DNA from: Thermoproteota archaeon
GTDB lineage: Archaea; Asgardarchaeota; Jordiarchaeia; Jordiarchaeales; Freyrarchaeaceae
NCBI GenBank assembly: GCA_029258835.1
Contig: JAPDJY010000044.1
Location: 1 to 17,289, forward strand
Direction of reading: 5' to 3'
Length of the DNA stretch: 17,289 nt
In this document: in pieces, positions 407 to 16,237 of the stretch
How positions within the stretch are numbered: position 1 is the first letter of the stretch
Layout of the letters: each line of letters begins with the position of its first letter
The notes under the pieces: generated by a model
Databases searched by the model: none
Told to the model about the DNA's origin: nothing
The model's input: the letters and a program-made list of their open reading frames with translations, nothing else
Program-made: the position numbers and the translations under genes

Positions 407-571
407 CCGCCGAAGCCAGCTAGCCGTGTTAAATATTCGGTGACCCCTTGAACGCCCGGTGTCCCGCCGTCCCTAGACAGCTAACAGGTTCCCCGTCTTG
501 ACGCTTAAATAGGCGTGTTTGATGGGAAGGAGTTAAATAGTTGCCGAAAATGTTATGTTCGGGTGATTTCC

Positions 572-1912
572 GTGTGCGACACCCTTGTGGCTTTGGGTAA
601 TTCCACCGAGGATGGCTCCGTGGTCTTAGGGAAGAACAGTGACAGGGATCCTAACGAGGCCCAGGTTCTCAGGTACCTCCCTAGGATGGAGCACTCTGAG
701 GGTGAAACCGTTAAGTGCACTTACATTGAGATCCCTCAAGTCCCTAAAACCTACGAGGTAGTCCTCTCCTGCCCGTACTGGATCTGGGGGGCTGAAATGG
801 GAGTTAACGAGTTTGGCGTCGCCATAGGAAACGAAGCTGTCTGGTCTAAGGAGCCCTACAGGGAGACGGGGCTCCTCGGAATGGATCTCCTCAGGCTTGC
901 GCTTGAAAGGGCTGAAACGGCACGTAAAGCATTAGAGGTTATAGTCGAGCTGATTGAGAAGTATGGTCAGGATGGCTCCGCAAACCCGAACTTCCAGCTT
1001 ATGTACCACAACTCGTTCATAATCGCCGACCCACGTGAGGCGTGGGTTCTCGAGACCGCCGACAAGTACTGGGTGGCTGAGAAGGTTAGGGACGTGCGTT
1101 CCATCTCGAACTGTTACACGATAGGTGAAAGGTGGGATCTCGCCTCCCCCGGGCTCGTGGAGCACGCGGTCGAGAAGGGATGGTGCGAGTCCCGAAAGGA
1201 TTTCAACTTCGCAAGGTGCTACGGGGACCGTGAAATGGAGTCCATAGCGATGGCCGCCGGCAGGCTTGCAAGGTCGATGAATCTGCTCAGGGAGAACAAG
1301 GGTAGGATAAACGTCGAGTTAATGATGGACTTTCTGAGGGATCACGGGGGAGGAGGCTGGGACCCCTGGACGCAGGAGGAAGCGACGATCTGCATGCATG
1401 CGGGCCCCGGCGTTGTGAGCAACACCGCTGGAAGCTACGTCGGCCACTTGACAGACGAGGAACACTTACACTGGTTTGCCCCATCGTCCTCCCCATGCAT
1501 AAGCCTCTACATACCGGTATACATGGGAGGGGTTGGAGTCCCCGAGGAGCTGAGCAGGGGTGAGGGAAAGTATAGCGGGGATTCCCCATGGTGGGTTCAC
1601 GAGAAGCTCGCCAGAATGATCCACATGAAGGGGTATAGTCGCCTAGCTGGAGAGGTGAGAGCCGAGATCGAGTCCCTCCAGAAAAGGTTCCTAGACGAAG
1701 CCTACGGGGCGAGAAGGGAGTGTCTTGGGGCTTCAGGAGGAGGGAGAAGGAGAAAGCTGAGGGAGGTAACTGACAGATGCTTTAGGGCGGCTTACGAGAA
1801 GTACCGGGAGTGGGCTGGCAATGTTGCCAAGGTAGAAGCTAAGGAGAGGCCGCCGGAGAAGTACTACGAGTACTGGTACCTTCAGAACTACGCAGCCGGC
1901 ATTAACGTTTAA
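572..1912 (+). CDS. Peptidase C69 family dipeptidase / secernin-like Ntn hydrolase
   Basis: Start refined from 515 to GTG 572 (RBS GGGTGA at 561-566), giving M-CDT with an N-terminal nucleophile Cys; motifs GKNSDRDPNEAQ, WGAEMGVNEFGVAIGNEAV, GLLGMDLLRLALER, YHNSFIIAD, ISN, ICMH. Confidence 0.92.
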   Translation: MCDTLVALGNSTEDGSVVLGKNSDRDPNEAQVLRYLPRMEHSEGETVKCTYIEIPQVPKTYEVVLSCPYWIWGAEMGVNEFGVAIGNEAVWSKEPYRETGLLGMDLLRLALERAETARKALEVIVELIEKYGQDGSANPNFQLMYHNSFIIADPREAWVLETADKYWVAEKVRDVRSISNCYTIGERWDLASPGLVEHAVEKGWCESRKDFNFARCYGDREMESIAMAAGRLARSMNLLRENKGRINVELMMDFLRDHGGGGWDPWTQEEATICMHAGPGVVSNTAGSYVGHLTDEEHLHWFAPSSSPCISLYIPVYMGGVGVPEELSRGEGKYSGDSPWWVHEKLARMIHMKGYSRLAGEVRAEIESLQKRFLDEAYGARRECLGASGGGRRRKLREVTDRCFRAAYEKYREWAGNVAKVEAKERPPEKYYEYWYLQNYAAGINV

Positions 1913-2126
1913 CCTTCCTGAGGTATTTAAGGTAGAGGACGACTGTGAATCCTCCAAGGGAGAGGGTGGTTACCAGCGTTATGGTTGCGGCGGCTAGGGG
2001 GGTCAGGTAGCCAATCCTCCTTAACGCTACGGATGCTAGCGAGCCGAGGAGGGCGGAGAGGAGGACTATTATCAGGGCTCCGTAAACGTCGTACCTCGAA
2101 ATAAGCCTGAAGAACCATTCAATCAT
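1902..2126 (-). CDS. Small two-TM membrane protein, possible accessory subunit of the adjacent NSS-like transporter
   Basis: 74 aa with two hydrophobic segments and a basic C-terminus; its ATG overlaps the transporter TGA (ATGA at 2126-2123); 11-nt convergent overlap with the C69 gene. Confidence 0.7.
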   Translation of the reverse strand: MIEWFFRLISRYDVYGALIIVLLSALLGSLASVALRRIGYLTPLAAATITLVTTLSLGGFTVVLYLKYLRKVKR

Positions 2127-3598
2127 TTTTTACTTCGCCTCCTTTCGGCGGCCCATTTAAGGGTGAAGGCGGCGGTGAGACATGAGGAGAGCCAAGCCAG
2201 CGTCGAGCAGGTGAAAATGGCTGAAACATCTTGGGGTAGAAGAGGGGTGAGAGGGGTGAGGGGCTGTGCGAGAAGGTAGACGTGAGGTAACGCTGAAAGG
2301 ACGGTTAGGGTGATCGTGGCCAGCAGGGCTGGCGTGGCTGCGAACCGAAGGATTACGTCTAGGAGCCTCTTAACGCGTGCTGTGGCTTCCACGTTGAGCT
2401 GCTTGAGTGGGCGGCTCACGCCCATAACCCATCCGACTGCCACCACCTCGGCTAGCGCCACAAGGCAAATGTTGACTCCTGCAAACCACCAGTAAAGGAA
2501 CACCAGCTGGGTCCAAGGAGAAAAAAGGGTGAAGACTAGGCTTAGAGTTGCCGCAGGAGCAGCGGATAGCGTGATGGCGCCGCTCCTGCCAACCCCAAGC
2601 TCCTCCTTGATGGTGGAGGAGGCGGAGTCGAGGGCTCCTATAACCCCCATAGCAGACACTATGGTGAACACGCATAGTAAACAGTCGACGGCAACCCGTC
2701 CCAAGAGGCCGTGACGGGTGGACAGGGTGGCTGAGGATGCAAGCCACCAGGAGAAAACCCCTAACGGGCTTACTGGTGGGAGTGCGAAGCGTTCAGCGTC
2801 CACTAGGCCTGAAGCACCTCCACCGCTAAAGAACGCCATCGAGGAGAGGAAGACGAGGCCTATGACCGCTAGGGGGTAAAGGGTTACTTGGAAGCCGACG
2901 TCTTCCTCTCCTCTGGCATGGTGGTGGAGAACTCCCATGCCGGCCCCCACGCCCAGAACAGGGAGAGATAGAAGTAAGGGTAGGAAGCAGCCAGACCAGT
3001 ATGCCTCAACAACATAGTTTATTCCTGGGTTCACTCCTCCGGGTAAAGCCACGTTTAGGGCTGCTACGAGCATGAGGGAGGCTGCGGCAGCCAGCAGGGC
3101 AGCCCTAGTTAAAACCACTCTCTTAGACGGCTTAAGAACGAAGGCTAAGACTGCAGCCGTAGCCCAGAAGGAGGCGAAGCCCACGGCGCGGTGGAATCCC
3201 GAGGACCAGAGGAGAGAAACGGTGAGGTATGTTGAAGGGAGCATTGCAGGCCATGGAAGGGTGGAGATGAGGGATTGCCCCGCCAGCAGCAACCCGGCAA
3301 CGATTGATAGTAGAGAGGAAATCCATATGGCGTTCACCAGAGCAAGCCACCCTAGGATCTCCAAGCGGCGACTCACACTTCTTAACGACCCTGGCAGGGT
3401 TGGGGATAGAGGTGACAGGGAAGCCTCGGAGAAAGCCGACGGGAACCCCACCAGCAGCGTGAGGAGGAGGAATGAGAGCACTGCTACTACACCCCCGCTC
3501 AAAACGTTAAACTCGAAAAGCCAGAGCGAGACGGCCCCTAGGGTTAATGCCACGCCGATGCATGCTAAACGCATGGCAGCCACCCATAATACCTTCAA
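2123..3598 (-). CDS. Divergent sodium:neurotransmitter symporter (NSS/SNF, SLC6-like) family membrane protein
   Basis: 491 aa with about 11-12 hydrophobic segments; remnant NSS motifs SGG...LLVGFP...E.SL (TM2), SL..LGVGAG (TM6), ALAEVVAVGWVMG (TM10), LRFAATP (TM11); start codon uncertain (TTG). Confidence 0.7.
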   Translation of the reverse strand: MKVLWVAAMRLACIGVALTLGAVSLWLFEFNVLSGGVVAVLSFLLLTLLVGFPSAFSEASLSPLSPTLPGSLRSVSRRLEILGWLALVNAIWISSLLSIVAGLLLAGQSLISTLPWPAMLPSTYLTVSLLWSSGFHRAVGFASFWATAAVLAFVLKPSKRVVLTRAALLAAAASLMLVAALNVALPGGVNPGINYVVEAYWSGCFLPLLLSLPVLGVGAGMGVLHHHARGEEDVGFQVTLYPLAVIGLVFLSSMAFFSGGGASGLVDAERFALPPVSPLGVFSWWLASSATLSTRHGLLGRVAVDCLLCVFTIVSAMGVIGALDSASSTIKEELGVGRSGAITLSAAPAATLSLVFTLFSPWTQLVFLYWWFAGVNICLVALAEVVAVGWVMGVSRPLKQLNVEATARVKRLLDVILRFAATPALLATITLTVLSALPHVYLLAQPLTPLTPLLPQDVSAIFTCSTLAWLSSCLTAAFTLKWAAERRRSKK

Positions 3599-4010
3599 CC
3601 TAATCCTTGAAAAGGATAACTGTCAACCAGCACCTAAAGACGAAGCAAAAACCCACTTGGGAGCGTTCTGCACCGGTCCATTAGGCTTCTTTAAACCTGA
3701 CCACTCCACCTCATTAAGGATGAAACGGGAGCAAGAAATGTAAGCTTTAAAAACCATGCTTTCCCTGCTAGGCGAGAACATCTGGAAAACGGTGAAGTAC
3801 AGGTAAAATGGGAGAGAGGCTGATAACAGCCATCACCGATCCCGTTCCCGTTGCCACTGAGAACTTTAGGTAGGCTTTTCCGCTGAGCCTTCGAAGCAGG
3901 AGCCGACTGAAGTGGATCATCCACCCACCTCCAAGTGGAGTTTAAGTGGGCTGCCCGGCGGCTTCAAGGCTGAGTGCTGGCCCAAGATTCTCCAGCTTTT
4001 TTAAAGGCTG

Positions 4011-4861
4011 TTATGCCTCTCTTATGAGGGATTTAATTTCTTCCTTTGGTACGCTCTTGAGGAGCTCGAGCAGGAGGTGTGGTGACATCCTCATCGGCCC
4101 GTAGAGGATGGCTTGCATCTTGGGCATGTACATGTACGCTAAGCTCCTCTTCGATATCAGCACGTCCTCTAGTTCCAGGGATATGGAGTAGTCTCCCAGT
4201 TCAACCTTCACGTTCCTAGAATTCCAGGAGGAGGCAAACTCCACCGCGTTAACCCTGAACTCGGTCCATTGAGGCTGCTTATCCATGTAAAGGTAAGTGA
4301 AGTATCTTAGTATTCGGCTTCTCTTAGCAGGGATCTTCTTCCCGGTAATGGTGAGGATGTGACTTCCCTTTTCGCTTAGCCTACATGAAAGCTCGTTCTC
4401 CGTCTCAACCCAGTCGAACTCGGCTATGAACTTAGGGAAATTGTAATAGTCGACTCCGCCCCTCAGCGCGATCTCGGTGTCAACGGGGAGGTAGTGGATG
4501 TACGTGTGGAAGATGCCTCGCCTTAGCTGGCTTAGGACTCCGCCGGCGGACGGCTGCTTAATGATGATGGCTATGGCAAGCTCGTTGTATGGCTCTATGT
4601 CCGTGTTACGGTAGTTGAAGGCGGATATTGCAACCAGGCCGACTCCGGGAATTATGGTTGCAGGCTCGTAGACGTCTGGGAGCAGGCTCCTAAGCTTCCG
4701 AGCTGAAGCTGGTAAGGCGGCAACTATCGAGCGTGCATCATAGTAGAAAATCGGGATCTTCCCCTTTTCCCCGCTATGATCGCCTCCTGCTGCGTTACCC
4801 CCTCAAAGAAATCCTTCCTCTCCGCCTCCCTCCTCCTAATCCAGTACTCGGAAGTCTCCAT
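4011..4861 (-). pseudogene. Acetoacetate decarboxylase-like superfamily protein interrupted by one frameshift (about 283 aa if one base is restored)
   Basis: ATG 4861 (RBS GGTGGGG) reads METSEYW...DFFEGVTQQEAIIAG and stops at TAG 4726-4724. The -1 frame reads GEKGKIPIFYYD...FNYRNTDIEPYNELAIAI...YIHYLPVDTEIALRGGVDYYNFPKFIAEF and runs in frame into the listed ORF 4011-4286. The PYNE Glu and the FPK Schiff-base Lys are retained. Confidence 0.85.
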
Positions 4862-4911
4862 AAACCCCACCACAACGTTGCTCAAATTAAGCAATCTACC
4901 CCGTACGTTTC

Positions 4912-4925
4912 TATTTAAAAGTTTC
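4912..4925 (-). promoter_or_regulatory. Putative BRE/TATA promoter of the ADC-like gene
   Basis: Minus strand reads GAAAC-TTTTAAATA about 50 nt upstream of ATG 4861. Confidence 0.5.
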
Positions 4926-5282
4926 GGGAGAGGTTTATTAACTTATTAACTTATTTGGTGAGATGGGAAAATGAGAATTATTTTTAGTTGTACTCCTGCT
5001 TAAACCCTCCTTCGCGAATACCGTAGCAAATCGGAGAGCAACGAAGGCAACACCAGAACGATGACTTCAATAGAAGATGGGTGTTAATTTAGTCGTTACA
5101 GAGAGGGCAGGAAGGACGAGGGAGCGAGATTCCAGATAGCAGCAGGTACGGGTTCGCCACCACAGAAACCCTTGCAAGCTCTGCATACCGCCAAACGTTA
5201 CACTAGCGATATTTGACAGAGCCGGCGACCGAAAAGTTTACAAAATAATTTCTGCTATTTCCTTTTAGGGATGGATGGTAGA

Positions 5283-5627
5283 ATGGTGAAGCTGGAGATT
5301 TGGTTTGACAGGAAAGCATACTACCGCCTGCCAAGATGTGGACGCCTTGAAGCCGCAGGAAACAGGCGCACCCTTGAGGGTTTACGTCCATACACCTACT
5401 TCACCATAACGTGCGACTGGTACATGCAGGTTTTACAGTATGAAAAGAGGAATTGCTGCACCGTCAGGTACTATATCGTTAGGGACGGGGATGACTACTA
5501 TCTCATACTCTACTCATCGGGTTGCAGCAGCCACCCTGGAATCCTTGACTACCAAAGCCTAGAACGCGAGAAAGTTGAGGAGATCCTGGAGGCTTCAAGG
5601 CGGGGAAGCCAGCCGAAAATAAGGTAG
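5283..5627 (+). CDS. Hypothetical protein (Tyr/Cys-rich, about 114 aa)
   Basis: Open frame from 5271 or 5283, lying between other genes, with an AT-rich upstream region and T-tracts after the stop (5644-5662); no family recognised. Confidence 0.6.
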   Translation: MVKLEIWFDRKAYYRLPRCGRLEAAGNRRTLEGLRPYTYFTITCDWYMQVLQYEKRNCCTVRYYIVRDGDDYYLILYSSGCSSHPGILDYQSLEREKVEEILEASRRGSQPKIR

Positions 5628-5884
5628 GGAAGAAGGGCTCACCTTTTCTTAACGATATTTTTCACACTCATAAATCCTCATGCTCCTAAAGGATACCCAA
5701 AACTTTAAGATCACACTCCGGGTTCGGCTTCTAAAGGAGTGGAGACGTCAGATTTCAGCATCATTTAAATGTGGAGATACGCCGTAAACTATGAAAAGGG
5801 GGTTAGAGTTGGTTGTGCGTCTGGCTCGGCCGCATTAGATCCAATGCTTACTAAAGGAGTGGACTCCGTTTTCAAGCTTCGTGT

Positions 5885-5914
5885 CTTCACCCATGTGAAG
5901 CGAAAAAATTTAAA
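5885..5914 (+). promoter_or_regulatory. Inverted repeat CTTCAC-N4-GTGAAG abutting the BRE/TATA of the dehydrogenase gene
   Basis: 5885-5900 CTTCACccatGTGAAG directly followed by CGAAAAAA-TTTAAA (5901-5914). Confidence 0.5.
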
Positions 5915-5953
5915 GTTCGGACGCTTTGGACATTACGGGGTGCCAGCTTGCCT

Positions 5954-7117
5954 ATGGATGTGTTGAGGGACGATATTGGCCCGGAGTATGTCGTGGAGCT
6001 GTATGATCCTGCAACAGGCACCAGAGGGTTTCTGGTGATCGATACGATGGTTTACGGCGTCGCCGCCGGCGGCGTCAGGATGCTTCCAGACGTGACGGTA
6101 GGGGAGGTATCCCATTTGGCTAGGGCTATGACCTACAAGTTTGCAACGTACGATATGCCCATCGGAGGGGCGAAGGGGGGAATCGTAGCTGACCCGTCGT
6201 CCCCGGACAGGGATAGGCACGTGGGTGCATTTGCACGCCTCGTAGCCCCATTCTTAAAACAGCTCGTTTACATTCCTGGAGCAGACATGGGAACCAGCGA
6301 CAGGGACGTGGCGGTGATGTGCGAGGTTGCTGGAATGGAGCAGTTTAAGCCGAGTGGTTTAACCCTTAAGGTTAAGGATGGAATGCCCCTGGAGGATCAC
6401 CTCACCGGCTACGGTGTGGTGGTAGCTGCCAAGACGGCGGCTGAGCTAGTCGACGTGAGCATTGAGGGGGCTAGCGTCGCGGTAGAAGGGTTCGGGAAGG
6501 TTGGAGGAGGGGTTGCAAGGTACATGGAGAAGCTTGGGGCGAGGGTTGTGGCCATATCAACCATTCACGGAGCGATATATAACCCTAAAGGGTTGGACGT
6601 GGAGGGGCTTCTGGAGGCAAGGAGGAAGCACGGTGACAGGGTGGTGCTCGAGTATAAGTACGCGGAGAGAATAGCTAAGGAGAAGATCTTCACCCTCCCC
6701 GTTGACGTGCTGGTTCCCGGTGCGAGGCCATACGTGATAGACAAGAATAATGCTGGAGACGTGAAGGCTAAGATTATCTCTCCGGGTGCGAACATTCCGA
6801 CAACTCTGGAGGCTGAGGAGATCCTGTCCAGGAAGGGTGTTCTCTCGATCCCCGACTTCGTGGCGAACGCTGGGGGGATAATAGCAGCCACCATGGACAG
6901 GATGAGCGCCACGGAGGAGAAGGCCTTCGAAGCGGTGGAGTCGAACATATCCAGCGTGACGAGGAGGATAATATCCCAGGCGATGGAAGAGAAAACTTAC
7001 CCTCTGGCGGTAGCCGTCAGAATGGCTAGGGAGAAGGTTAAGCGTGAAATGGAAAAGAAGGAAAGGATGGCGGCTGAGGAGATAGAAAAGAAGGTAAGGG
7101 AGAAGTTTGGAGTCTAA
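5954..7117 (+). CDS. Glu/Leu/Phe/Val family amino acid dehydrogenase, probably not glutamate-specific
   Basis: GGVRM, LARAMTYKFA, GGAKGGI (catalytic Lys), GADMGT, TGYG, Rossmann GFGKVG, GAN, PDFVANAGG; start is TTG 5948 or ATG 5954 after RBS GGGGTG. Confidence 0.93.
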   Translation: MDVLRDDIGPEYVVELYDPATGTRGFLVIDTMVYGVAAGGVRMLPDVTVGEVSHLARAMTYKFATYDMPIGGAKGGIVADPSSPDRDRHVGAFARLVAPFLKQLVYIPGADMGTSDRDVAVMCEVAGMEQFKPSGLTLKVKDGMPLEDHLTGYGVVVAAKTAAELVDVSIEGASVAVEGFGKVGGGVARYMEKLGARVVAISTIHGAIYNPKGLDVEGLLEARRKHGDRVVLEYKYAERIAKEKIFTLPVDVLVPGARPYVIDKNNAGDVKAKIISPGANIPTTLEAEEILSRKGVLSIPDFVANAGGIIAATMDRMSATEEKAFEAVESNISSVTRRIISQAMEEKTYPLAVAVRMAREKVKREMEKKERMAAEEIEKKVREKFGV

Positions 7118-7187
7118 GGGTTCCACGTGGCGGTCGCTCGGGAACCAGCCAAGTTCCTTTATTATCTCCTTTATGTCCGAATAATCA

Positions 7188-7695
7188 CTAGTCAACGTAT
7201 GGGCAGTTTAAGGCGTTGACCCGCGCTTCCATCCGGAAAGCTTCTGGAACTTCGCAGGAGACTTAATGTTTACGTCATAGAATATCTTCCCGGCTTCAAC
7301 CAGCGCTTCGAACGCGTCGCCCGTGACGACGCCATTTAGCAGCCAAGTCTTTCTATGACGACCTTATTCGCCGTGAACGCCGCACTCCTCGACCCTGACC
7401 CTCTTTCGCCCTGAAGTTCATGCCCCGCCTTAAGCATGCCATAAATAGCACAGTGCCCTTTGGGGTCCTTCTAAGTTTCCTCGAAACGTAGTCTACGAGC
7501 CCGTCGATCGTCTCCACGTTCTCCGGAGGCTTTTCACCAGTCTTCTCTGCTTCAAACGCTAAACCATACTTCACAACCAGCTTTTCGTAGACCGGGCCGT
7601 AAACACCCCTAACCTCCATGGCGGCCTCTCTAGCAGCTGAAATCAGCAGGTTTACGTCAGGATCCTTCGTGAACTTGTATTCGTCAAACGCTCAT
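7188..7695 (-). pseudogene. Degraded gene remnant with about four frameshifts; product unknown (C-terminal CPY.D motif is reminiscent of V4R-like domains)
   Basis: RBS GGTGAG + ATG 7695 stops after 3 codons. Protein-like segments in successive frames: AFDEYKFTKDPDVNLLISAAREAAMEVRGVYGPVYEKL... / PKGHCAIYGMLKAGHELQG...AAFTANKVVIE / LLNGVVTGDAFEALVEAGKIFYDVNIK / RVNALNCPYVD*. Confidence 0.6.
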
Positions 7696-7812
7696 TCCAG
7701 CTCACCCTGAATAAGAGGGCTTCCGGAAATTTAATTTTCACGTTTAAACCATGTGAATTACCTTCGCAAAACGGTATTTCTTTTTACGTTCTTAGTCGGG
7801 GAAAACTTTTAG

Positions 7813-7827
7813 AGAAAGAATTAAATA
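7813..7827 (+). promoter_or_regulatory. Putative BRE/TATA promoter of BKACE-1
   Basis: AGAAAGAA-TTAAATA about 45 nt upstream of ATG 7870. Confidence 0.5.
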
Positions 7828-7869
7828 GTTCATTAAGCTATTCTTCAACCGGTGAATGGAGGAGGAATT

Positions 7870-8847
7870 ATGGCGTTCTTAAGGGCTTGGAGGGAAAAGC
7901 TAATCATCACTTGTGCTTTAACAGGGTCTGCAACGATCCCTTCTCAGACGCCGTATCTCCCCATCACGCCAGACCAGATAGCTGAAGAGGCTTACAGGGC
8001 TTGGGAGGCTGGAGCAGCCGTCGTCCACGTCCACGTTAGGGATCCCAAGACCGGGATGCCGACCGCCGACCTTAACGTCTGGAGGGAGACCTTAACCAAG
8101 ATAAAGGAGAAATGTGACGTGGTGGTCTGCTGCACCACGGGCGGGGGGATGGGGATGACCGCAGAGCAGAGGATAGCCGTCGTACCAGAGTTCGAGCCTG
8201 AAATGTGCTCCTGCAACACTGAAAGCATGAACTTCACCTTGTTCCCCCTAGCGGAGAGGATCAAAGAGTGGAAGACGGAGTGGGAGAAGCCCCTGCTGGA
8301 GGCCAGCAAGGACTTCGTCTTCAAGAACACGTTCGCCGACTTGGAAACGTTCCTTAAGACAATGTACGAGCACAATGTGAAGCCAGAGTTTGAAATCTAC
8401 GGTACGAATGGTATATGGAACCTTGGAGCGTACGTCCAGTTTGGATGGGCTAAGTTCCCGCTTCACATGCAGTTCGTGCTGGGCGTCCTAGGAGGGACGG
8501 GGCCAACAGTGGAGAACTTGCTTCACCTTAAGCACACAGCTGACATGATGTTTGGACCTCAAAACTACACGTGGTCCATTATAGGCGTAGGATACCCCGC
8601 CCAGTTCCACCTTGGAGCGGTAGCCATAACCATGGGTGGCCACGTCAGGGTTGGACTGGAGGACAACATATACGTGAAGTATAAGATAAAAGATGGGCAA
8701 GTGGTCGACAGGGTTCTGGCTAAGAGCAACGCCGAACTGGTCGAGAAGATCGTGAAGATAGCGGACGAGCTAGGTCGAGAAATAGCGACGCCAGCTGATG
8801 CGAGGAGAATGCTGGGCTTAAAGGGAATGGACAAAGTAAAATTCTAA
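7870..8847 (+). CDS. Beta-keto acid cleavage enzyme (BKACE, DUF849; 3-keto-5-aminohexanoate cleavage protein family), paralog 1
   Basis: KLIITCALTG, AGAAVVHVHVRD (Zn HxH), TTGG, SMNF, KPEFE, GGHVRVGLED, SNAELV, REIATP..AR; ATG 7870 follows GGAGGAGG. Confidence 0.95.
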   Translation: MAFLRAWREKLIITCALTGSATIPSQTPYLPITPDQIAEEAYRAWEAGAAVVHVHVRDPKTGMPTADLNVWRETLTKIKEKCDVVVCCTTGGGMGMTAEQRIAVVPEFEPEMCSCNTESMNFTLFPLAERIKEWKTEWEKPLLEASKDFVFKNTFADLETFLKTMYEHNVKPEFEIYGTNGIWNLGAYVQFGWAKFPLHMQFVLGVLGGTGPTVENLLHLKHTADMMFGPQNYTWSIIGVGYPAQFHLGAVAITMGGHVRVGLEDNIYVKYKIKDGQVVDRVLAKSNAELVEKIVKIADELGREIATPADARRMLGLKGMDKVKF

Positions 8848-8857
8848 ATCTCCCTGC

Positions 8858-8879
8858 TTTTCACCCACTTTTTTACTTT
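8858..8879 (+). terminator. Oligo-T archaeal terminator after BKACE-1
   Basis: TTTT...TTTTTT..TTT tracts within about 30 nt of the stop. Confidence 0.5.
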
Positions 8880-9150
8880 CCTACACTAGTTGAAGCATTT
8901 GAAGGCGTATAAAAGTTATAGAGTTAAGGTGACTAGCTGAGGAGAGGGGTCGGCAGGGCTTAACCCGGGTTTTCATCTTCTTTCCCTCGGTTTGTTGGCG
9001 ACACGCGGCTTCCTTGGTTATGATCGTTTAACGCTTAGTTATGAGGGGGCGAATCCGGAGACGTAGAAGAGGGTTTATTGAGATAATGTTTATATTTTCT
9101 GATTTCCTTACTTACTCCTTAAACTGGAACCGGGTTTGAGGGGAGTGGAG

Positions 9151-10041
9151 TTGGCTGAGAAGAAGGAGAAGCTGATTATAACCGCCGCCGTCACGGGTGG
9201 CGACTTTGTTTCTAAGTGGTTGACGCCATACGTTCCGTCGACTGTTGACGAGATCGTTGAGGAAGTTGTCCGTGTGAGGAAGGCTGGCGCTTCCATCGTC
9301 CACCTTCACGCTAAGGATCCCGAAACAGGAGCGCCGGCAAAGGATCCCAACCCTGTCCTGAAGGAGTACGTTGAAAGAATTAGGGAGAGCGAGGCGTCAG
9401 ACATAATAATCAACATTACTACGGGTGGGGGGAGGTTCGTTGAACCAGAGAAGCTGGACGAGATCATGAGGGAGAGAACCACTTTCGGACAGGAGATGTG
9501 CTCCCTCAACATGGGCTCCCTTAACCTTTGGGAGGACATGGGAATACCCCAGCTGAGAGACATGATCTTTGGCAACCCGATCAACACGATCGTCAGGTGG
9601 GCGGGTTACATGTACGAGAACGGCGTCAAGCCAGAGCTTGAAATATACGACACAGGCATGATCAACGCTGCCAAGAGGCTGGTTGCGGAGGGGGCGCTCA
9701 AAGAGCCGCTCCACATCCAGTTCGTTATGTTCGACGGGTTGTCCTGTATGTCGCCCAACCTTAAAACGCTCCTTTACTGCGTCGAGTCTATACCGAGCAA
9801 CTGGACATGGTCTGTTTGCGCTCCGGGCAGGTACGAGATGGAGATGGCTGCAGCAGCCATAATCCTTGGAGGACACGTCAGGGTAGGCATGGAGGACAAC
9901 ATCTACCTTGAGAAAGGGGTTCTGGCTAAGAGCAACGCCGAACTGGTCGAGAAGGTGGTTAGGATAGCTAAGGAGCTTCAGAGAGAAATAGCGACGCCGG
10001 ATGAAGCAAGGAAAATTCTAGGGTTAAAGCCAAGAGAGTAA
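9151..10041 (+). CDS. Beta-keto acid cleavage enzyme (BKACE, DUF849), paralog 2
   Basis: KLIITAAVTG, AGASIVHLHAKD, TTGG, SLNMGSLN, KPELEIYD, GGHVRVGMED, SNAELV, REIATPDEAR; start TTG 9151 or 9136; TTTATAT TATA-like box at 9088-9094. Confidence 0.95.
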   Translation: MAEKKEKLIITAAVTGGDFVSKWLTPYVPSTVDEIVEEVVRVRKAGASIVHLHAKDPETGAPAKDPNPVLKEYVERIRESEASDIIINITTGGGRFVEPEKLDEIMRERTTFGQEMCSLNMGSLNLWEDMGIPQLRDMIFGNPINTIVRWAGYMYENGVKPELEIYDTGMINAAKRLVAEGALKEPLHIQFVMFDGLSCMSPNLKTLLYCVESIPSNWTWSVCAPGRYEMEMAAAAIILGGHVRVGMEDNIYLEKGVLAKSNAELVEKVVRIAKELQREIATPDEARKILGLKPRE

Positions 10042-10050
10042 GCAAACCAC

Positions 10051-10104
10051 TCTCGTTTTTCTTCTTTCCGAGTGAAAAAAAATGAGAGGAGCAAAACAAA
10101 AAAT
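10051..10104. terminator. Bidirectional oligo-T terminator region between convergent BKACE-2 and CoA-transferase genes
   Basis: T-tracts on + (10056-10067) and A-tracts, i.e. T-tracts on -, at 10075-10082 and 10093-10104. Confidence 0.55.
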
Positions 10105-10108
10105 AGGT

Positions 10109-10882
10109 TTATTTTTGTTTTCCAATAACTATCCACGCCTCTCTTATCCCTCTGAGGATCTCCAGTTCTCTTGGTGACGGCTCCTCCGTCGTCTCCACCT
10201 TGTCTGCAACTAGGAGCTCGAAGCTGGTGTTTTTCATCACGTCTTCAACCGTTACGCCCGGGTGGACGGAGATCAGCCTCATCCTCTTGGTTTCCTCGTC
10301 GAAGTCGTAGACCCCCAGCTGGGTTATCACCCTGTATGGCCCGGAGCCTTCCGGCAGCCCTGCTTTCTCCCTAGCTCCGGGGCCTGAAAGGTATCCGGGC
10401 GTGGTTATGAAGTCGACTTTCTCCACGAACCTCTGAGGGTCCTGCCTCATTATGATGATCGTCCTCCAGGCTAGGGAGCCTCCATCGTTGGCTCCGCCGC
10501 TTCCTGGAAGCCTAACCTTTGGGTTGTCATGCTCCCCTATCACCGTAGTGTTCAGGTTCCCGTACATGTCTATTTGAGCCCCTCCGAGGAAAGCGTAGTC
10601 GAAGTATCCTAGCTGTGCGCATGACATCACATAGTCCATGCTTGTAGCCATCAAAGCCTTGTAGAATGTCCTCGAGTCGCCAACCGATATCGGGAGGGCG
10701 GGGACCTCGGGTCCAAGTCCGCCAGCCTCGAAGAAGATGACCATGTTTGGTGCGTGAAGCCTCTGGGCGAGCATGGCGGCGAGTATCGGCAATCCCGTCC
10801 CGACGAAGACTATTTTCTTATCTTCAAGAAATCTGGCTGCGACACATGCCATAAGCTCGGTCATATTATACGGCTTAGACAT
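10109..10882 (-). CDS. CoA-transferase subunit B, glutaconate CoA-transferase (GctB)/3-oxoacid CoA-transferase-like
   Basis: VFVGTGLP, IFFEAGG (catalytic Glu position), FLGGAQIDMYGNLN, RLPGSGGAND, RFVEKVDFITTPG, GPYRVIT.LGV, SVHPGVT. Confidence 0.92.
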   Translation of the reverse strand: MSKPYNMTELMACVAARFLEDKKIVFVGTGLPILAAMLAQRLHAPNMVIFFEAGGLGPEVPALPISVGDSRTFYKALMATSMDYVMSCAQLGYFDYAFLGGAQIDMYGNLNTTVIGEHDNPKVRLPGSGGANDGGSLAWRTIIIMRQDPQRFVEKVDFITTPGYLSGPGAREKAGLPEGSGPYRVITQLGVYDFDEETKRMRLISVHPGVTVEDVMKNTSFELLVADKVETTEEPSPRELEILRGIREAWIVIGKQK

Positions 10883-10898
10883 CTTAACCTCATCCCCC

Positions 10899-11924
10899 TT
10901 ACTTTTTCTTTTTCTTCTCGGTCCAGGGAGCCTTCAGGGGGGCTCTAAGCTGCTCAAGCTTCTTGAGGTAGTTCAGTTTCTTCAGTCCACCTATCTTCTC
11001 AAGGTACTCTTCGAAGCTGTCAACGCTGTAAACGTACTTTTCGAAGTACTGGTCTACGCCTTCAGGGGTTCGCGACAGTTCAAGCCACTCGGCGATGTGC
11101 TCCTCGTCGAAGTAGTACATGTATGGCATGTTGCATGGATGGGAACCGTACGGGATCTCAACCACGGCGTCAACCAGGAAGTATGGTATGACCGTCCTCC
11201 AAGGCTCCCTTCTTATCTCCTCGTTCGGGATAATCTCCTCCGTGGTTACTATGAGCCTCTTCGCAGCCCTGGCAAGCTCGTAGTCCTCTATTGTTATCCC
11301 GTCTATCTGGCAGTTCCCATACACGTCGCACCTGTGAACGTGCATAAAGACGACGTCAGGGTAGCATGCCGGAAGCAGGCATATCGGCTTACCGGAGAAC
11401 GGGTCTTCGACCACCTTCGCCGAACTCCACCTGAAGGTGTCGGTTCCGAGCATGACCCTTGTCGGTATGAATGGAAGCCCCATGGCTGCAGCCTTGAAGC
11501 GCCACTGGAAGCCCGCATTACTCCACTCGGATACGACCTTGGCCTTCCCCTCCTCAACCATCCTCCTAGACGCCGGGGAGAGGCCCCTAAGCTCGTGTCC
11601 GAAACAGTAGGCTACTTCAAGCTTGTCTACAACCCCTGAAGCTACGAGAACGTCGACATCGTGGACGGCAGTCTTACCTGCGAGGGTTATGTGCCTCTTC
11701 CTCTGCCTTATCATTTCGTATATGGCGGCCATCGAGATCCTTATGTGTCCGAAGCCTCCCATTGCAAGGTAGCATCCGTCATATACAAACTTTGAAACGG
11801 CCTCCTTCAGGTCCATGGTCTTGTCGACCATGTCCCTCCTCTTGTTCTCCCTAACCCACCTTCTAGCCTCGTCGTGGTCCATCCAAGCCAGCAGCTCTCC
11901 TTTTCCCTCTTCCAAAACCTTCAT
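10899..11924 (-). CDS. CoA-transferase subunit A, GctA-like
   Basis: V.DG..LAMGGF, EWSNA..WRFKAAAMGLPF.P, DPFSG, PDV.F.HV.RCD.YGN, A.AAKRLIVT.EEI, VIP..LVDAVV..P.GSHP; ATG 11924 follows RBS GGGGGA. Confidence 0.92.
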   Translation of the reverse strand: MKVLEEGKGELLAWMDHDEARRWVRENKRRDMVDKTMDLKEAVSKFVYDGCYLAMGGFGHIRISMAAIYEMIRQRKRHITLAGKTAVHDVDVLVASGVVDKLEVAYCFGHELRGLSPASRRMVEEGKAKVVSEWSNAGFQWRFKAAAMGLPFIPTRVMLGTDTFRWSSAKVVEDPFSGKPICLLPACYPDVVFMHVHRCDVYGNCQIDGITIEDYELARAAKRLIVTTEEIIPNEEIRREPWRTVIPYFLVDAVVEIPYGSHPCNMPYMYYFDEEHIAEWLELSRTPEGVDQYFEKYVYSVDSFEEYLEKIGGLKKLNYLKKLEQLRAPLKAPWTEKKKKK

Positions 11925-12048
11925 TAAATCCCCCCAAGAACGGTGCAAATACGGTTGAGTTCCAGCAAAAATATAAGATTTATGGTTCCGTAGACTTTTG
12001 GCTCAATCTATGGTGATGCTCGTGTGCGCTAAAAGGTGAGTATGGGGT

Positions 12049-13602
12049 TCAGAACATTTCACCCTCCTTAACCCAGCTGGGGAACCACCTGTAGTATTCT
12101 GGCGGGTTGGCTTCCTTCAGCCCCTTGTATGTCGCCTTGGCTAGGGCTATCCTTCCAGCCCTGTCCCTGTAGATCTTAACCAGCCCCTTCTCCTCTAACC
12201 CTGTTAGGGCCTCCTCAAGCTTGTCCATGCTTGCAGGGTCCACCCTGAGCTCGAAGGCTAGGTCTTCGACCGTCATGAATAGTCCGGGGTTAGCCCTATA
12301 GTCCTCTGCGAGAACTTTAAGCACGTTCTCCTCGTTGACGGGCGTTCCTTCAGGCATTAACGGTTCAGCCTTGTAGTATGGTATTGGGACGCCTAGCTCC
12401 TTGTGGATCCTCCTCTTAGGAGGCTCCAGCTCCTTGGCTAGCAGCCTGAGGCCGAACCGTGCTATAAGGAGGCGTAGAACCTCGTTTGTTCCTGCCCCAA
12501 TCTCCATGATCTTAGCGCTCCTCATAGCATACTCTAACGGGTAGAACTTTGTCAGGCCGTCTCCTCCCATAACCTGTATCATGTCTAAGCATGCCTTGGT
12601 GACTGCCTCGGACCCATAAACCTTAGCGGCTGTAGCCTCTATTAGAGGCTGCTCCCCCCGGTCTACCAGGTAGGCGGCGTAGTAGGTTAGGAGCCTGTAC
12701 GTTTTCCAGCTGGCTATGACGTCGGCCAGCTTGATCATGTTCGTTTGGAACGTGGCTGTGGGCCTGTTAAATTGTATTCTCCTCTGGCTGTGGAAGACTG
12801 CGTAGGTTATGAGATCTCTGAACGTTCCAACTATGCCTGCAGCCCCCAGAGTCCTTTCGAAGTTGAGGCCGCTGATCATTATGTTCCATCCGTCCCCCTC
12901 CTCTCCAAGCCTGTTCTCAGCGGGAACTCTAACCTCGTCGAAGTTAAGGTATCCGTTTCTGACCCCGTCCCATCCGCTCAGCTCATTTATTTTTTCAACG
13001 CTGAACCCGGGGGTTCCCTTCTCCACTATGAACGCGCTAAGGTGGCGGCGGCTCGCAATGTCCTTAGGGTCGTCGCTTGTCCTAGCGTAAACCATGTATA
13101 TGTCCGCTAGCCCCGTGTTGCTTATAAACCGCTTTTTCCCGAGTATGACGTACTCGTCCCCTTCCCTCCTAGCGGTTGTCTCAACTCCACCAGCATCCGA
13201 GCCCACGAAGGGCTCGGTTAGCGTTATAGCCCCCATAAGCTTTCCCTTAGCTATGCCCGGAAGCCACCTCTCCTTCTGCTCCTCATTCCCGAAATGGGCG
13301 ATCTGGTGTGTCCCACCAAACATCGTCGTGCTGAAGGCCACGCATACGCTTCCAAGGGGAGTGGTTAACTCGGCAACTATGCAGCAAGCTGTTACGCCGT
13401 AGCGTGGGCCAAGCCCACCATACTCCTCAGGTATTATGGTTCCGAACCATCCTCTCCCACCCATCTCGTTGTATATGTCCCATGGAAACTCCTTTTTCCA
13501 GGTGGCTTCAGCCGCACGTGGGGCCTTTTCCTTAGCAAACTCCTCAACCTCATCAGCAAGTTTTCTCTGCTCCTCATTCCACCAAGGATACTTCTCAACC
13601 AT
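12049..13602 (-). CDS. Acyl-CoA dehydrogenase (isovaleryl-CoA-dehydrogenase-type active site) with a C-terminal winged-helix-like extension
   Basis: PEEYGGLG, GNEEQKERWLP, LTEP..GSDA, GKKRFISN, GEEGDGW, GLNFER, RIQFNRP, IQVMGGDG, EIGAGTNE, plus about 125 extra C-terminal residues; ATG 13602 follows GGAGGGG (ORF track start 13674). Confidence 0.93.
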   Translation of the reverse strand: MVEKYPWWNEEQRKLADEVEEFAKEKAPRAAEATWKKEFPWDIYNEMGGRGWFGTIIPEEYGGLGPRYGVTACCIVAELTTPLGSVCVAFSTTMFGGTHQIAHFGNEEQKERWLPGIAKGKLMGAITLTEPFVGSDAGGVETTARREGDEYVILGKKRFISNTGLADIYMVYARTSDDPKDIASRRHLSAFIVEKGTPGFSVEKINELSGWDGVRNGYLNFDEVRVPAENRLGEEGDGWNIMISGLNFERTLGAAGIVGTFRDLITYAVFHSQRRIQFNRPTATFQTNMIKLADVIASWKTYRLLTYYAAYLVDRGEQPLIEATAAKVYGSEAVTKACLDMIQVMGGDGLTKFYPLEYAMRSAKIMEIGAGTNEVLRLLIARFGLRLLAKELEPPKRRIHKELGVPIPYYKAEPLMPEGTPVNEENVLKVLAEDYRANPGLFMTVEDLAFELRVDPASMDKLEEALTGLEEKGLVKIYRDRAGRIALAKATYKGLKEANPPEYYRWFPSWVKEGEMF

Positions 13603-13838: not shown

Positions 13839-15767
13839 TTAAGGGGAAGAAGGGATGATATCCTTTACGAGGGAGTATATTTTTTCGGGTTTTACGTCCG
13901 GCAGCCTTACGTACCTTGCTTGGGCATGCTCTACTATTGTTTGAATGTAGCTGGGCTTCCAAGGGTCAGGGCGCGTATCAACCACTAGGGTTGAGGCTTC
14001 GAGCTCCCTCAGAGCTCTTGAAAGGCGTTCAAGTTCCACCCTCACGTTTGACCCTGGGCTGAGCGGGACGTTTGCCCGTCCATCCGTTATGAGGACTACT
14101 ATCGGTTTAAGCTCACGCTTAGACAGCCTCTGCTTTCTGATCAACTCCACGGCTTGGAGAAGGGCTGACGAGAGGGGGGTTTTCCCTCCGGTTGGAAGCT
14201 CGCCTAGGAGGCGCACGGCAAGGTCGAGGTTGGATGTTGGAGGAAGCACCACCTGAGCGCTGCCACCTCTGAATGATATGAAGGCAACTTGATCCCTGTT
14301 AACGTATGCTTCGCGGAGAAGGGATAGGGCTGCGCCCTTAGCTGCCTCCATCCTCCTCAGTACTGCCATGGAGCCGCTGGCATCGACCACGAGAACTATG
14401 AGAGATGAAGCCCTAGTGAACCTCACCTTCTCTCTTAAGTCCTCGGGCTTAACGGTTAGCATGCCTCCAGTCCATCCTCCCCTAGCCGCCGCGGCTCTTA
14501 GGGTTGCGTCGATCGCTATGTCCCTCGGCGTTCCCCGTGGAATGGTACTGGCAACGTAGGCTCCCTTACCGTTTCCAGCTTTAACCCTCAGCCTCCTCCC
14601 GGTTCTAGGAGTCCCCCTCGCCTTCTCACTAAGGTTGAAGTCTAGGGAGTAGGAGGGGTCGGCTTCAAACATTCTCTCACCCGTAGGCTGCCCCTCTCCA
14701 CTTTCCCCCTCTTCAACCCTTCCAATCGATTCCCTAGCCTCCTCCAGGAGGCTTCTTATCTGCTGTGGCTCTAGGCGTGGCTGCTCGAAGGGGTGCCTCC
14801 TCACCCTGTGAGGGAGCGCTAGGCTCATGGCCTCCTCGACGTCTTGCTCGCTGACGCTTACGCGCCCGTCTAGGGCTGCTATGGTTTTAGCCGCCTTCAC
14901 TATGGCTATCTCCGCCCTGCTGCTCGTCTTCAGGCTGGCGCAGACGCTTGCAACCGTTAACAGGAGTTCATCGCTCATGGTGACTTTAGGCAGTGTTTCC
15001 ATAGCATTGGCAATCCTCTCCTTAAGGTCTTCCTGGCTATCCCTGTATTTTTCGATGAAGGTGGAGGGGTCTGCTTCGAAGGCCTCCACTCTCTTTACTA
15101 TCTCAACTCTGAGGTGGGGGTCTTCAAGGTTTTCCACGTCGACTTGAAGCCCGAACCTGTCAAGAAGCTGCGGCCTGAGCTCCCCCTCCTCCGGGTTCAT
15201 CGTGCCGACGAGTATGAACTTCGCCGGGTGGGACACCGATACCCCCTCGCGCTCAACCACGTTGACGCCGCTCGCCGCCGCATCCAGCAGGATGTCTGCC
15301 ACGTAGTCGTCGAGCAAGTTTACCTCGTCGACGTAGAGGATCCCCCTGTTCGCCTCAGCCAGCAGCCCAGGCTCGAGGGCCTTTAACCCCTCCTTCAAGG
15401 CTCTTTCTATGTCGAGTGTTCCAGCAACCCTGTCAACCGTTGCGTTGAGAGGTAAATCCACTATCCTAACCTTTCTCTTTACGGATGGCAGGGATCCCTC
15501 CTTCTCGTACCTTTCAAAGCAGTTGTCGCACATCTCCGCTGGGTTATGGGGGTTACAGTTGAAGGGGCACCCCTCAACAACCTCTATTTCTGGGAGGAGC
15601 TCCGCCAGCCCCCTGACCGCGGTTGACTTACCTGTCCCCTTCTCACCCCTTATCAGGACGCCGCCTATCCTGGGGTTGACGGCGTTTAAAACCAGCGCCT
15701 TCTTCATAGGCTCCTGGTCCACTATCGCTGTGAAGGGGTAGAGGAACCTTCTCACGTGGTGGGGCAA
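13839..15767 (-). CDS. chlD: Magnesium/cobalt chelatase subunit D/I-like protein (AAA+ ATPase fused to VWA domain)
   Basis: YPFTAIV.Q, Walker [15 protein letters not shown]...[46 protein letters not shown]; [27 protein letters not shown]; TTG start after GGTGA. Confidence 0.9.
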
Positions 15768-15924: not shown

Positions 15925-15973
15925 CGTAAGAAATATATTATTTACATTTCCCATTCCTTAAGGGGTGGTGCCG

Positions 15974-16237
15974 TTGTCAACCGTCAGGGTAAGCGATGAA
16001 ACTAAGAGGATGCTTGTGCTGGTTAGCTCGAAGCTTCAGGAGATGCTTGGGAGAAGGGTAAGTTTCGACGAGGCAATACGGTTTATGGCGCAAACCTTCC
16101 TCGAGAGAGAAGGGAACGTAGCAGGCTTATTTGGCGTACTGAAAGAGGTGGAAGCCAGCGAACTACATGAAATCCTAAGGTTGGAAAGGAGGAGGGACGA
16201 GGAAGGGGTGAGAAGGGTTGAGAAGGGTAGTGGTTGA
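15974..16237 (+). CDS. vapB: VapB-type antitoxin (ribbon-helix-helix-like)
   Basis: STVRVSDETKRML...LGRRVSFDEAIRF beta-alpha-alpha pattern, LFGVL and charged tail (ERRRDEE); overlaps the PIN gene by 20 nt; start 15965, 15968 or 15974. Confidence 0.8.
   Translation: MSTVRVSDETKRMLVLVSSKLQEMLGRRVSFDEAIRFMAQTFLEREGNVAGLFGVLKEVEASELHEILRLERRRDEEGVRRVEKGSG

Follow-up and report, generated by a model that had tools for sequence, protein, structure and literature searches.

Two beta-keto acid cleavage enzyme genes, a Gct-type CoA-transferase and a candidate lineage-specific gene mosaic in a Freyarchaeial genome

The locus and its genomic setting

The window analysed here is a stretch of 17,289 nucleotides that makes up an entire contig (C52) of a metagenome-assembled genome (MAG; 2.72 Mb in 91 contigs, 94.7% complete, 6% contamination) of an Asgard archaeon belonging to the Freyarchaeia. 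It carries two genes for beta-keto acid cleavage enzymes (BKACE1 and BKACE2) and, convergent with them, the genes for both subunits of a Gct-type CoA-transferase, together with genes for an acyl-CoA dehydrogenase (ACAD), an amino acid dehydrogenase of the ELFV type (hereafter ELFV), a peptidase, a permease and a member of the acetoacetate decarboxylase (ADC) superfamily (Table 1). A previous interpretation made from the letters and open reading frames (ORFs), here called the sequence-only reading, had joined these genes into one amino acid catabolic pathway built around the two BKACEs. Our comparison with related genomes favours, with a probability of roughly 0.55, a different account, in which the 13 kb of these genes hold no single dedicated pathway but a mosaic specific to the lineage, with at least seven units that each have a promoter of their own, and in which the coupled core consists of the two BKACEs and the GctAB-type CoA-transferase. 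Gene calls, made from the ORF listing and from Pfam and NCBIfam scans of the window, recovered between positions 515 and 13674 all eight gene types that had been named before, and no tRNA or Rfam match was found in the window.

Table 1. Genes called in the window, with position, strand and supporting evidence
Feature	Position	Strand	Evidence
C69/C45-like Ntn-hydrolase peptidase	515-1912	+	PF03577
74-aa membrane protein with two transmembrane segments	1902-2126	-	ORF listing
Divergent NSS/SNF-like polytopic permease	2123-3598	-	PF00209 (sub-threshold) and atlas features
ADC-superfamily gene, frameshifted	4011-4861	-	PF06314
118-aa conserved hypothetical gene (orf118)	5271-5627	+	no Pfam match
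389-aa non-glutamate ELFV dehydrogenase	5948-7117	+	PF00208, PF02812
88-aa hypothetical gene (orf88), between ELFV and BKACE1	7353-7619	-	ORF listing; no Pfam match
BKACE1	7852-8847 (likely start ATG 7870)	+	PF05853
BKACE2	9136-10041	+	PF05853
Gct-type CoA-transferase beta	10109-10882	-	PF01144
Gct-type CoA-transferase alpha	10899-11948	-	PF01144
ACAD with a C-terminal extension of about 130 aa	12049-13674	-	three ACAD Pfam domains

The genes of the 13-kb stretch are spread over both strands in at least seven transcription units; the sequence-only reading had itself raised the caveat that there are several. A simple TATA-box pattern search (a sigma-70 scan being inapplicable to archaea) located TATA-like boxes upstream of the ADC, ELFV, BKACE1, BKACE2 and CoA-transferase alpha genes. 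Only the alpha/beta pair looks co-transcribed, the beta gene starting 16 nt past the end of alpha, and these two genes are probably read as one transcript. Some contigs of two metatranscriptome libraries, both from the same sample, overlap with portions of BKACE1, with the 5' end of BKACE2 and the 3' end of ELFV, and with the ACAD gene, both CoA-transferase genes and a chelatase gene described below; such contigs cannot show transcription, its level or co-expression, and gaps in their coverage carry no information.

A span of 6 kb contains both BKACE genes and the sole ADC-family gene detected in the MAG, and for these window genes the clustering is beyond chance. Regarding the remaining acyl-CoA genes, the MAG contains 8 ACAD, at least 10 enoyl-CoA hydratase (ECH), at least 14 thiolase-like and 7 3-hydroxyacyl-CoA dehydrogenase (3HCDH) genes, 3 Gct-like pairs, about 16 matches to ADP-forming acyl-CoA synthetases and 2 IorAB pairs (on C22 and C38). 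Because ACAD, ECH, thiolase and CoA-transferase belong to families so rich in paralogs, their nearness alone means little. The same gene arrangement is found in four other assemblies of related strains, one of which (L033, about 97.5% identical to the window at the DNA level) joins the window to the end of contig C18, where genes for an ECH, an amidase and a sugar-isomerase-like TIM-barrel protein are followed by unrelated genes; no further pathway genes were found past the contig end in the C18 sequence reached in this way.

The BKACE pair, the CoA-transferase and the acyl-CoA dehydrogenase

Both BKACEs are clear members of PF05853/DUF849, with 347.5 bits for BKACE1 and 304.1 bits for BKACE2 against a cut-off of 24.8. 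The HxH motif (H59, H61), E179/E181 and the R266-x3-E270-D271 motif are invariant in the BKACE alignment, and the Zn and catalytic residues of BKACE2 align with those of the Kce structure 2Y7D; following the Kce structure, we take the HxH histidines and the Glu of GxED to be the Zn ligands and the Glu of PExE to be catalytic. The nearest curated model to BKACE1 is the triacetate model NF053538 (3,5-dioxohexanoate/triacetate), against which it scores 385.5 bits and BKACE2 239.5 bits (cut-off 430), and the best one for BKACE2 is the Kce model NF052387, at 278.7 bits, with BKACE1 at 265.9 bits, both under the cut-off of 382.

The remark that neither protein has the TGAE motif of Kce was borne out, as BKACE1 reads TGSA and BKACE2 TGGD, with Ala at the position of Kce Glu14 in the former and Asp, a conservative change, in the latter. 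Among the matches of the BKACE2 clade with a readable motif, this position is acidic in 112 of 113 (83 Glu and 29 Asp), and the matches of BKACE1 carry mostly Ala, Val or Ile there. In Kce, Glu14 binds the 5-amino group of the substrate, and the triacetate lyase has Trp at this position (PMC10470551). Our typing of the pockets was confined to this position; because BKACE2 has Asp where its clade nearly always has Glu or Asp, it probably takes a cationic, amino-bearing substrate, and BKACE1 probably takes a neutral one.

Orthologs of BKACE1 with 54-74% identity occur in the Freyarchaeia genus g3, in Atabeyarchaeia and other Asgard MAGs, and in Dehalococcoidia and Thermodesulfobacteriota. At 71-72% identity, two orthologs from Dehalococcoidia (L053 and L054) are as near to the Asgard protein as those of other Freyarchaeia, which suggests a recent inter-domain transfer of this BKACE clade. 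BKACE2 is conserved at 80-89% identity across Freyarchaeia and is present in 8 of 301 sampled Asgard genomes, and its clade extends to Archaeoglobus, Hadesarchaea, Bathyarchaeia and other archaea. In one contig of DNA run X2, window positions 8711-8837 are joined to 9528-9916 through 38 shared bases, which connects the 3' end of BKACE1 to the 3' part of BKACE2; this join is either an assembly chimera at the conserved 3' ends of the two paralogs or a recombinant variant.

The subunits of the CoA-transferase match PF01144 (alpha, 137.2 bits; beta, 107.7 bits), and the best solved relative of both is glutaconate CoA-transferase 1POI (GctAB) of Acidaminococcus fermentans (1POI_B for beta, E 4.9e-52; 1POI_A for alpha, E 3.5e-44). 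The beta subunit also has an aligned Glu for the 'ESG' motif of GctB ('VESG' Glu with 'FFEAG' Glu), and we take this residue to be the catalytic one. By sequence the enzyme belongs to the Gct subgroup of Family I. It differs from GctAB in its surroundings, since the window locus has no 2-hydroxyglutaryl-CoA dehydratase nearby and its orthologs adjoin ECH genes, NMO-family genes, thiolases or BKACEs. Orthologs of the beta subunit (67-72% identity) were found in L145 and G016, and those of the alpha subunit (61-80%) in 17 of the 301 Asgard genomes. Among these 301 genomes, BKACE1-type genes occur in 18, the window-type CoA-transferase in 17 and both in 10; counted by family, both are present in 4, only BKACE1 in 1 and only the CoA-transferase in 3.

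The evidence that carries our interpretation comes from synteny, for which the window proteins were compared against 20 BKACE1-type and 45 BKACE2-type loci outside the species. At least four combinations of a BKACE with an adjacent Gct-type CoA-transferase were seen (the window, L145, L167 and genus g3). In the window, BKACE1 and BKACE2 are met by the convergent beta and alpha genes; genus g3 shows the same layout with two tandem BKACE1-type genes, but with a paralogous CoA-transferase (35-38% identity); a distant archaeon (L145) has two tandem BKACE2-type genes, with the motif TGGE, followed by convergent CoA-transferase genes 67-68% identical to those of the window; and L167 combines a 74% BKACE2 ortholog with a 68% ortholog of the alpha subunit. 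The adjacency of a BKACE and a Gct-type CoA-transferase was also seen elsewhere (L105, Hyphomicrobiales locus). This recurrence supports the general logic of the sequence-only reading, according to which BKACEs yield acyl-CoA and acetoacetate and a CoA-transferase recycles the acetoacetate. The pairing of a BKACE with an acetoacetate-recycling CoA-transferase is the only one in the window that is evolutionarily supported, and the coupling is recurrent, not obligatory. Moreover, thiolase and DUF35 genes lie near 10 of the 20 BKACE1-type loci, and ACAD, ECH or ADP-forming acyl-CoA synthetase genes near several.

Gene order is otherwise fluid between genera. Genus g2 (G003 and G004) has an ECH-BKACE2-ADC trio, an association confined to the family; in G001, in which no BKACE was found, ECH and ADC are adjacent with no BKACE2 between them; and in genus g3 BKACE2 lies among unrelated genes. 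Two further details of these loci may be recorded. The second tandem BKACE2-type gene of L145 (8855-9722) was called as two pieces (240 aa and 55 aa) with an overlap of about 20 nt, for which a micro-intron, a frameshift or an error in sequencing could be responsible. In a Freyarchaeon of genus g3, MtmB-family methyltransferase genes (L050:226-1596, on G008:C10) are found upstream of the tandem BKACE1-type pair, at a distance of about 3 kb.

The ACAD shows three Pfam domains over residues 33-407, and its best NCBIfam match is AcrC, at 262.7 bits against a cut-off of 640. Its best matches among solved structures are 5LNX (a generic ACAD), isovaleryl-CoA dehydrogenase (IVD) and butyryl-CoA dehydrogenase (Bcd), IVD being one of many near-equal matches, and the sequence therefore describes a generic short-chain ACAD of the IVD/Bcd-like type; of the previous label "IVD-type ACAD", the second half is retained and the first is not specifically supported. 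The C-terminal extension (12049-12430) is shared with paralogs on C15 (58%) and C2 (49%). Other Asgard contigs also carry long ACADs (516-536 aa), in L037 next to a BKACE1 ortholog and in L042 and L046 in the vicinity of ELFV orthologs.

Neighbours outside the conserved BKACE module

The ELFV protein was identified through PF00208 (174 bits) and PF02812 (72 bits). It falls far under the cut-off of every NCBIfam glutamate dehydrogenase (GDH) model (best 193.5 bits against 750), and both ligands of the glutamate gamma-carboxylate (K89 and S380 in C. symbiosum numbering) are replaced by Ala, the corresponding motifs being GVAAGG for GPAKGG and NAGGIIAA for NAGGVxxS; the description of this enzyme as a non-glutamate dehydrogenase was thus well founded. 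The MTYK motif with the alpha-carboxylate Lys and the GGAKGG motif with the catalytic Lys are kept at normal spacing. The protein resembles the hexameric GDHs (e.g., Thermotoga maritima 1B26/2TMG) and the Leu/Phe/Trp dehydrogenases in having both ELFV Pfam domains and both of these lysines, and differs from those GDHs in its two Ala replacements and in being shorter.

It belongs to a broad, uncharacterised clade whose members have about 390 aa and come from Asgard archaea, Chloroflexi and Deltaproteobacteria. Orthologs with 59-67% identity were found in G001, G007-G010 and G016, on contigs other than those that carry BKACEs, and G001 (95% complete, 8 contigs) has the ortholog with no BKACE found. 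In genus g3 and a matching metagenome contig, the ELFV gene lies between two ECH genes, near genes for a pyridoxal phosphate (PLP) enzyme, an M28 peptidase and a long ACAD. In three bacterial contexts, a homolog of about 50% identity is accompanied by an FrhB-like gene and an IorAB-type 2-oxoacid:ferredoxin oxidoreductase, with RidA and a PLP enzyme in two of the three and an amino acid permease in one. Such partners (PLP enzyme, RidA, permease, IorAB) point to chemistry that leads from an alpha-amino acid through a 2-oxo acid to an acyl-CoA, and a 2-oxo acid is not a substrate of BKACEs. Hence, ELFV is most likely an alpha-amino acid dehydrogenase that is not tied to the BKACEs, and the beta-amino acid feeding step that had been assigned to it is unsupported. 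In G002 (C15:37309-38425), the ELFV ortholog is in three pieces, one of which contains a TGA; it may be a pseudogene or may be interrupted by short inserts of the bulge-helix-bulge (BHB) type.

The sequence-only reading had placed a dipeptidase and a transporter at the head of the pathway and had named conserved linkage across relatives as a test of its proposal. Orthologs of ELFV, of the C69 peptidase and of the permease were found at 0 of the 20 BKACE1-type loci and 0 of the 45 BKACE2-type loci. Many of these loci are short; at those compared, none of the three is linked to a BKACE outside the species, the outcome that the sequence-only reading had itself named as refuting its proposal. The peptidase matches Peptidase_C69 (57.6 bits, cut-off 23) and scores 73.6 bits against the NCBIfam C69 dipeptidase equivalog, whose cut-off is 250. 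In G001, a 77% ortholog lies 7-9 kb from the ADC-like gene and is adjoined by a 57% ortholog of the 118-aa gene. The peptidase is therefore a neighbour that stands outside the conserved BKACE module. Concerning the permease, its PF00209 match reaches 24.6 bits, under the gathering score of 27, and is confined to residues 312-440, and its protein language-model (atlas) features agree with clusters of SNF-type 'sodium-dependent transporter' proteins (0.96; 99 of 100 matches). It was not found beside BKACE or ELFV orthologs in the other loci compared. Peptidase and permease are thus neighbours by descent within the family only.

The ADC-like gene matches PF06314 with 59.6 bits and is absent from all 20 BKACE1-type loci. 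In the window its ATG exon (from 4861) and its main frame (4802-4011) are offset by a one-nucleotide deletion in a minus-strand run of A, the window having A4 at 4765-4768 and three other assemblies A5. In an alignment with these assemblies of closely related strains (L033-L035), the intact alleles encode 283 aa and the only local difference is A4/A5. The extra base was not seen in the contigs of DNA runs X1 and X2 and is present in one RNA-library contig (X18). The A4 allele is a strain polymorphism or a pseudogene, and from these sequences it looks like a gene-inactivating population polymorphism. A BHB intron was also considered and is ruled out by the single-base nature of the difference to the three assemblies.

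Within the ADC-like clade, the Glu of 'YNE' is kept in 45 of 46 members and the Lys of '(Y/F)PK' in 40 of 46, and we take these residues to match the Schiff-base motif of ADC. The catalytic residues were read from clade conservation, as no solved ADC structure matched the protein, whether the single sequence or the 46-member profile was used. In sister strains, the intact protein may serve as an alternative sink for beta-keto acids or acetoacetate; in the strain at hand, the frameshift speaks against the disposal of acetoacetate that had been proposed for it.

Other genes of the window and its surroundings complete the picture. The start of the 74-aa gene, which has no Pfam match, overlaps the stop of the permease gene, and both this gene and the 88-aa gene were also called in sister assemblies. 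Positions 13839-15767 (minus strand) encode a 642-aa ChlI/ChlD-type chelatase ATPase with a VWA domain (TIGR02442, 754 bits against a cut-off of 779); no CobN/ChlH-like large subunit was found in the window, and a split paralog lies on C8. A VapB/VapC (PIN) pair at 15942-16619 aligns poorly or not at all with L033:18068-19205, where L033 carries genes of 92 and 268 aa in its place, which marks a strain-variable spot between the chelatase and an AlkA-like glycosylase.

A proposed recurrent core, its alternatives and their meaning

Taken together, these results favour a locus assembled from parts of different age. An ancestral block at the family level would have comprised ECH-BKACE2-ADC and, further on, orf118 and the C69 peptidase; BKACE2 would then have been flanked, in this species, by two gains, with ELFV-orf88-BKACE1 on one side and CoA-transferase-ACAD-chelatase-VapBC-AlkA on the other. 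In the proposed core, a Zn-dependent BKACE would condense acetyl-CoA with a free beta-keto acid to give an acyl-CoA and acetoacetate, as expected from the chemistry of the family. The CoA-transferase, through its conserved beta-subunit Glu, would move CoA from the acyl-CoA or from acetyl-CoA to acetoacetate, and thiolases encoded elsewhere would split the acetoacetyl-CoA into two acetyl-CoA. The ACAD and the ECH just past the contig end would act on the acyl-CoA product. Acetoacetate is a product inhibitor of BKACE, and a CoA-transferase together with a thiolase closes the cycle (PMC11961710). ELFV would be an ordinary oxidative deaminase of a non-acidic alpha-amino acid, whose 2-oxo acid would pass to the 2-oxoacid:ferredoxin oxidoreductases encoded on other contigs, and its only contact with the BKACE module, if any, would be the acyl-CoA pool that they share. 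The host would be a Freyarchaeon that ferments peptides, amino acids and acyl-CoAs.

The scheme itself is already known, and what is added here is its occurrence in uncharacterised archaeal clades. The BKACE recycling modules of deoxyribonate catabolism (bioRxiv 10.1101/205583) and of the synthetic CORE cycle (PMC11961710) likewise combine a BKACE, a CoA-transferase acting on acetoacetate and thiolysis. These modules differ from the window, which has no dehydrogenase that would make the free beta-keto acid and whose thiolases are on other contigs. The same logic of BKACE and acetoacetate recycling is reportedly also that of the carnitine genes cdhCAB, and it is shared by the lower half of lysine fermentation and by the phloroglucinol cluster, both treated below.

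Several points weigh against the proposed core. It rests on sequence and synteny, its substrates being candidates and its enzymes predicted, and the reading of the pockets depends on one aligned residue. Many of the comparison loci are shorter than 6 kb, so that absence at any single locus is weak evidence. BKACE1 and the CoA-transferase co-occur in only part of the genomes that have either, and the families in which both are present are relatives of one another. In most Asgard relatives, moreover, the CoA-transferase orthologs adjoin ECH, an NMO-family gene or thiolase/DUF35 and not a BKACE, and the primary job of the enzyme may be the activation of crotonate or of another short-chain acid. 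Finally, one of only two ELFV genes in a 2.7-Mb genome lies close to the sole two BKACE genes detected there, and this spacing could reflect a species-specific functional link that is invisible to synteny.

The alternative that survives best, which we regard as unlikely, is a 'lower half' like that of Kce for a cationic beta-keto acid, formed by BKACE2 together with the ACAD, the ECH and the orthologous Gct-type CoA-transferase, with BKACE1 and ELFV as later insertions. The substrate would be 3-keto-5-aminohexanoate, another amino-beta-keto acid or dehydrocarnitine, supplied by an upstream route or by cross-feeding. The lower half of lysine fermentation (reported by Kreimeyer et al. in 2007) is said to consist of Kce, for which structures 2Y7D-2Y7G exist, a butyryl-CoA:acetoacetate CoA-transferase, a Bcd-type ACAD, a crotonase and a thiolase. 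The window resembles it in bringing a BKACE, a CoA-transferase, a short-chain ACAD and a crotonase close together and in a BKACE2 that keeps the Zn and catalytic residues and is acidic at the Glu14 position, as is nearly all of its clade. Kce is also the best curated model for BKACE2, BKACE2-type genes recur with CoA-transferase orthologs in L145 and L167, and BKACE2 is highly conserved across Freyarchaeia. Two genes for dehydrogenases like carnitine dehydrogenase (CDH) and lambda-crystallin, on C29 and C45, would fit as well, the copy on C45 lying beside a paralogous CoA-transferase; free 3-hydroxy acids are the substrates of the characterised members of this subgroup. Freyarchaeia are also reported to have quaternary-amine methyltransferases of the non-pyrrolysine MttB type (PMC11291895).

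On the other hand, BKACE2 stays well under the Kce equivalog cut-off, the CoA-transferase is of the Gct and not of the AtoDA type, the genes lie in separate transcription units, and most BKACE2 orthologs are alone or beside unrelated genes, with no aminoacyl-CoA lyase or transaminase seen beside BKACE2. The lysine-specific genes, said before to be missing from the window, were sought in the whole MAG: the KamA C-terminal domain (LAM_C), KamD (Lys-AminoMut_A), KamB and Kal gave no match, the blanks for KamD and KamB being weaker as these models also matched no control genome, and kdd was not searched for. The more specific idea, in which the TGG[E/D] clade of BKACE2 and its orthologous CoA-transferase would be central to a so far undescribed route by which archaea, without lysine aminomutases or Kal, handle a cationic (amino- or trimethylammonio-) beta-keto acid, is tentative and in our view also unlikely.

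The dehydrogenase locus on C45 (G000:C45:8192-11150, L140) has the CDH/lambda-crystallin-like gene followed by the paralogous Gct-type CoA-transferase pair, with a thiamine diphosphate (ThDP) enzyme and an acyl-CoA ligase upstream, and it is a possible source of free beta-keto acids elsewhere in the genome. Identity of the C29 and C45 proteins as carnitine dehydrogenases was not accepted, their scores being well under the cut-offs, and is kept as a lead only.

It is improbable that the genes are merely juxtaposed by chance and share no specific pathway. The abundance of ACAD, ECH, thiolase-like, synthetase-like, Gct-like and 3HCDH genes in the MAG and the fluid gene order between genera would agree with this view, but both BKACE genes lie within 6 kb of each other and of the only ADC-family gene, and the adjacency of BKACE and CoA-transferase recurs independently. 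A role of BKACE1 as the triacetate acetoacetate-lyase of anaerobic phloroglucinol (polyphenol) degradation is very improbable, even though NF053538 is its best curated model and clusters for this pathway, with CoA-transferase and thiolase, are reported from Archaeoglobus and diverse anaerobes (PMC10470551). Its score is under the 430-bit cut-off, and it has Ala where the Clostridium scatologenes enzyme (CsTAL) has Trp16 (PMC10470551). The C. scatologenes cluster resembles our locus in its acetoacetate CoA-transferase and has a thiolase, but the window has no PGR, DPGC or TfD gene nearby, no reductase (PGR) or cyclase-family gene lies beside any BKACE1 ortholog with annotated neighbours, and the two cyclase-family proteins of the MAG, on C6, match arylformamidase alone, and weakly. 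Least probable of all is the complete pathway of the sequence-only reading, in which peptidase and permease would feed a beta-amino acid deamination by ELFV, the BKACEs and the ACAD would follow, and the CoA-transferase or the ADC-like protein would take the acetoacetate: the compact 13 kb, its conservation in the four sister assemblies, the lost glutamate ligands of ELFV and the missing kamA, kamD, kamB and kal matches, which call for a non-lysine substrate, speak for it, and the 65 loci, the separate ELFV contigs, the alpha-amino acid partners and normally spaced lysines of ELFV, the number of transcription units and the frameshifted ADC-like gene speak against it.

As a discovery, the preferred account of a mosaic with a BKACE and CoA-transferase core is modest, because its logic is that of the known scheme of BKACE and acetoacetate recycling. 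Nonetheless, BKACEs have been characterised almost solely in bacteria, and a published screen of 725 sequences covered 337 bacterial and only 3 archaeal genomes (bioRxiv 10.1101/2023.02.15.528638). Two archaeal BKACE clades are delimited here, each with a pocket prediction, one neutral and one cationic, and the comparison sorts their neighbours into partners (Gct-type CoA-transferase, thiolase/DUF35, ACAD and ECH) and non-partners (ELFV, peptidase and permease), which keeps an attractive but unsupported beta-amino acid pathway out of annotation. Overall, these findings bear on how Asgard archaea may handle acetoacetate and free beta-keto acids.

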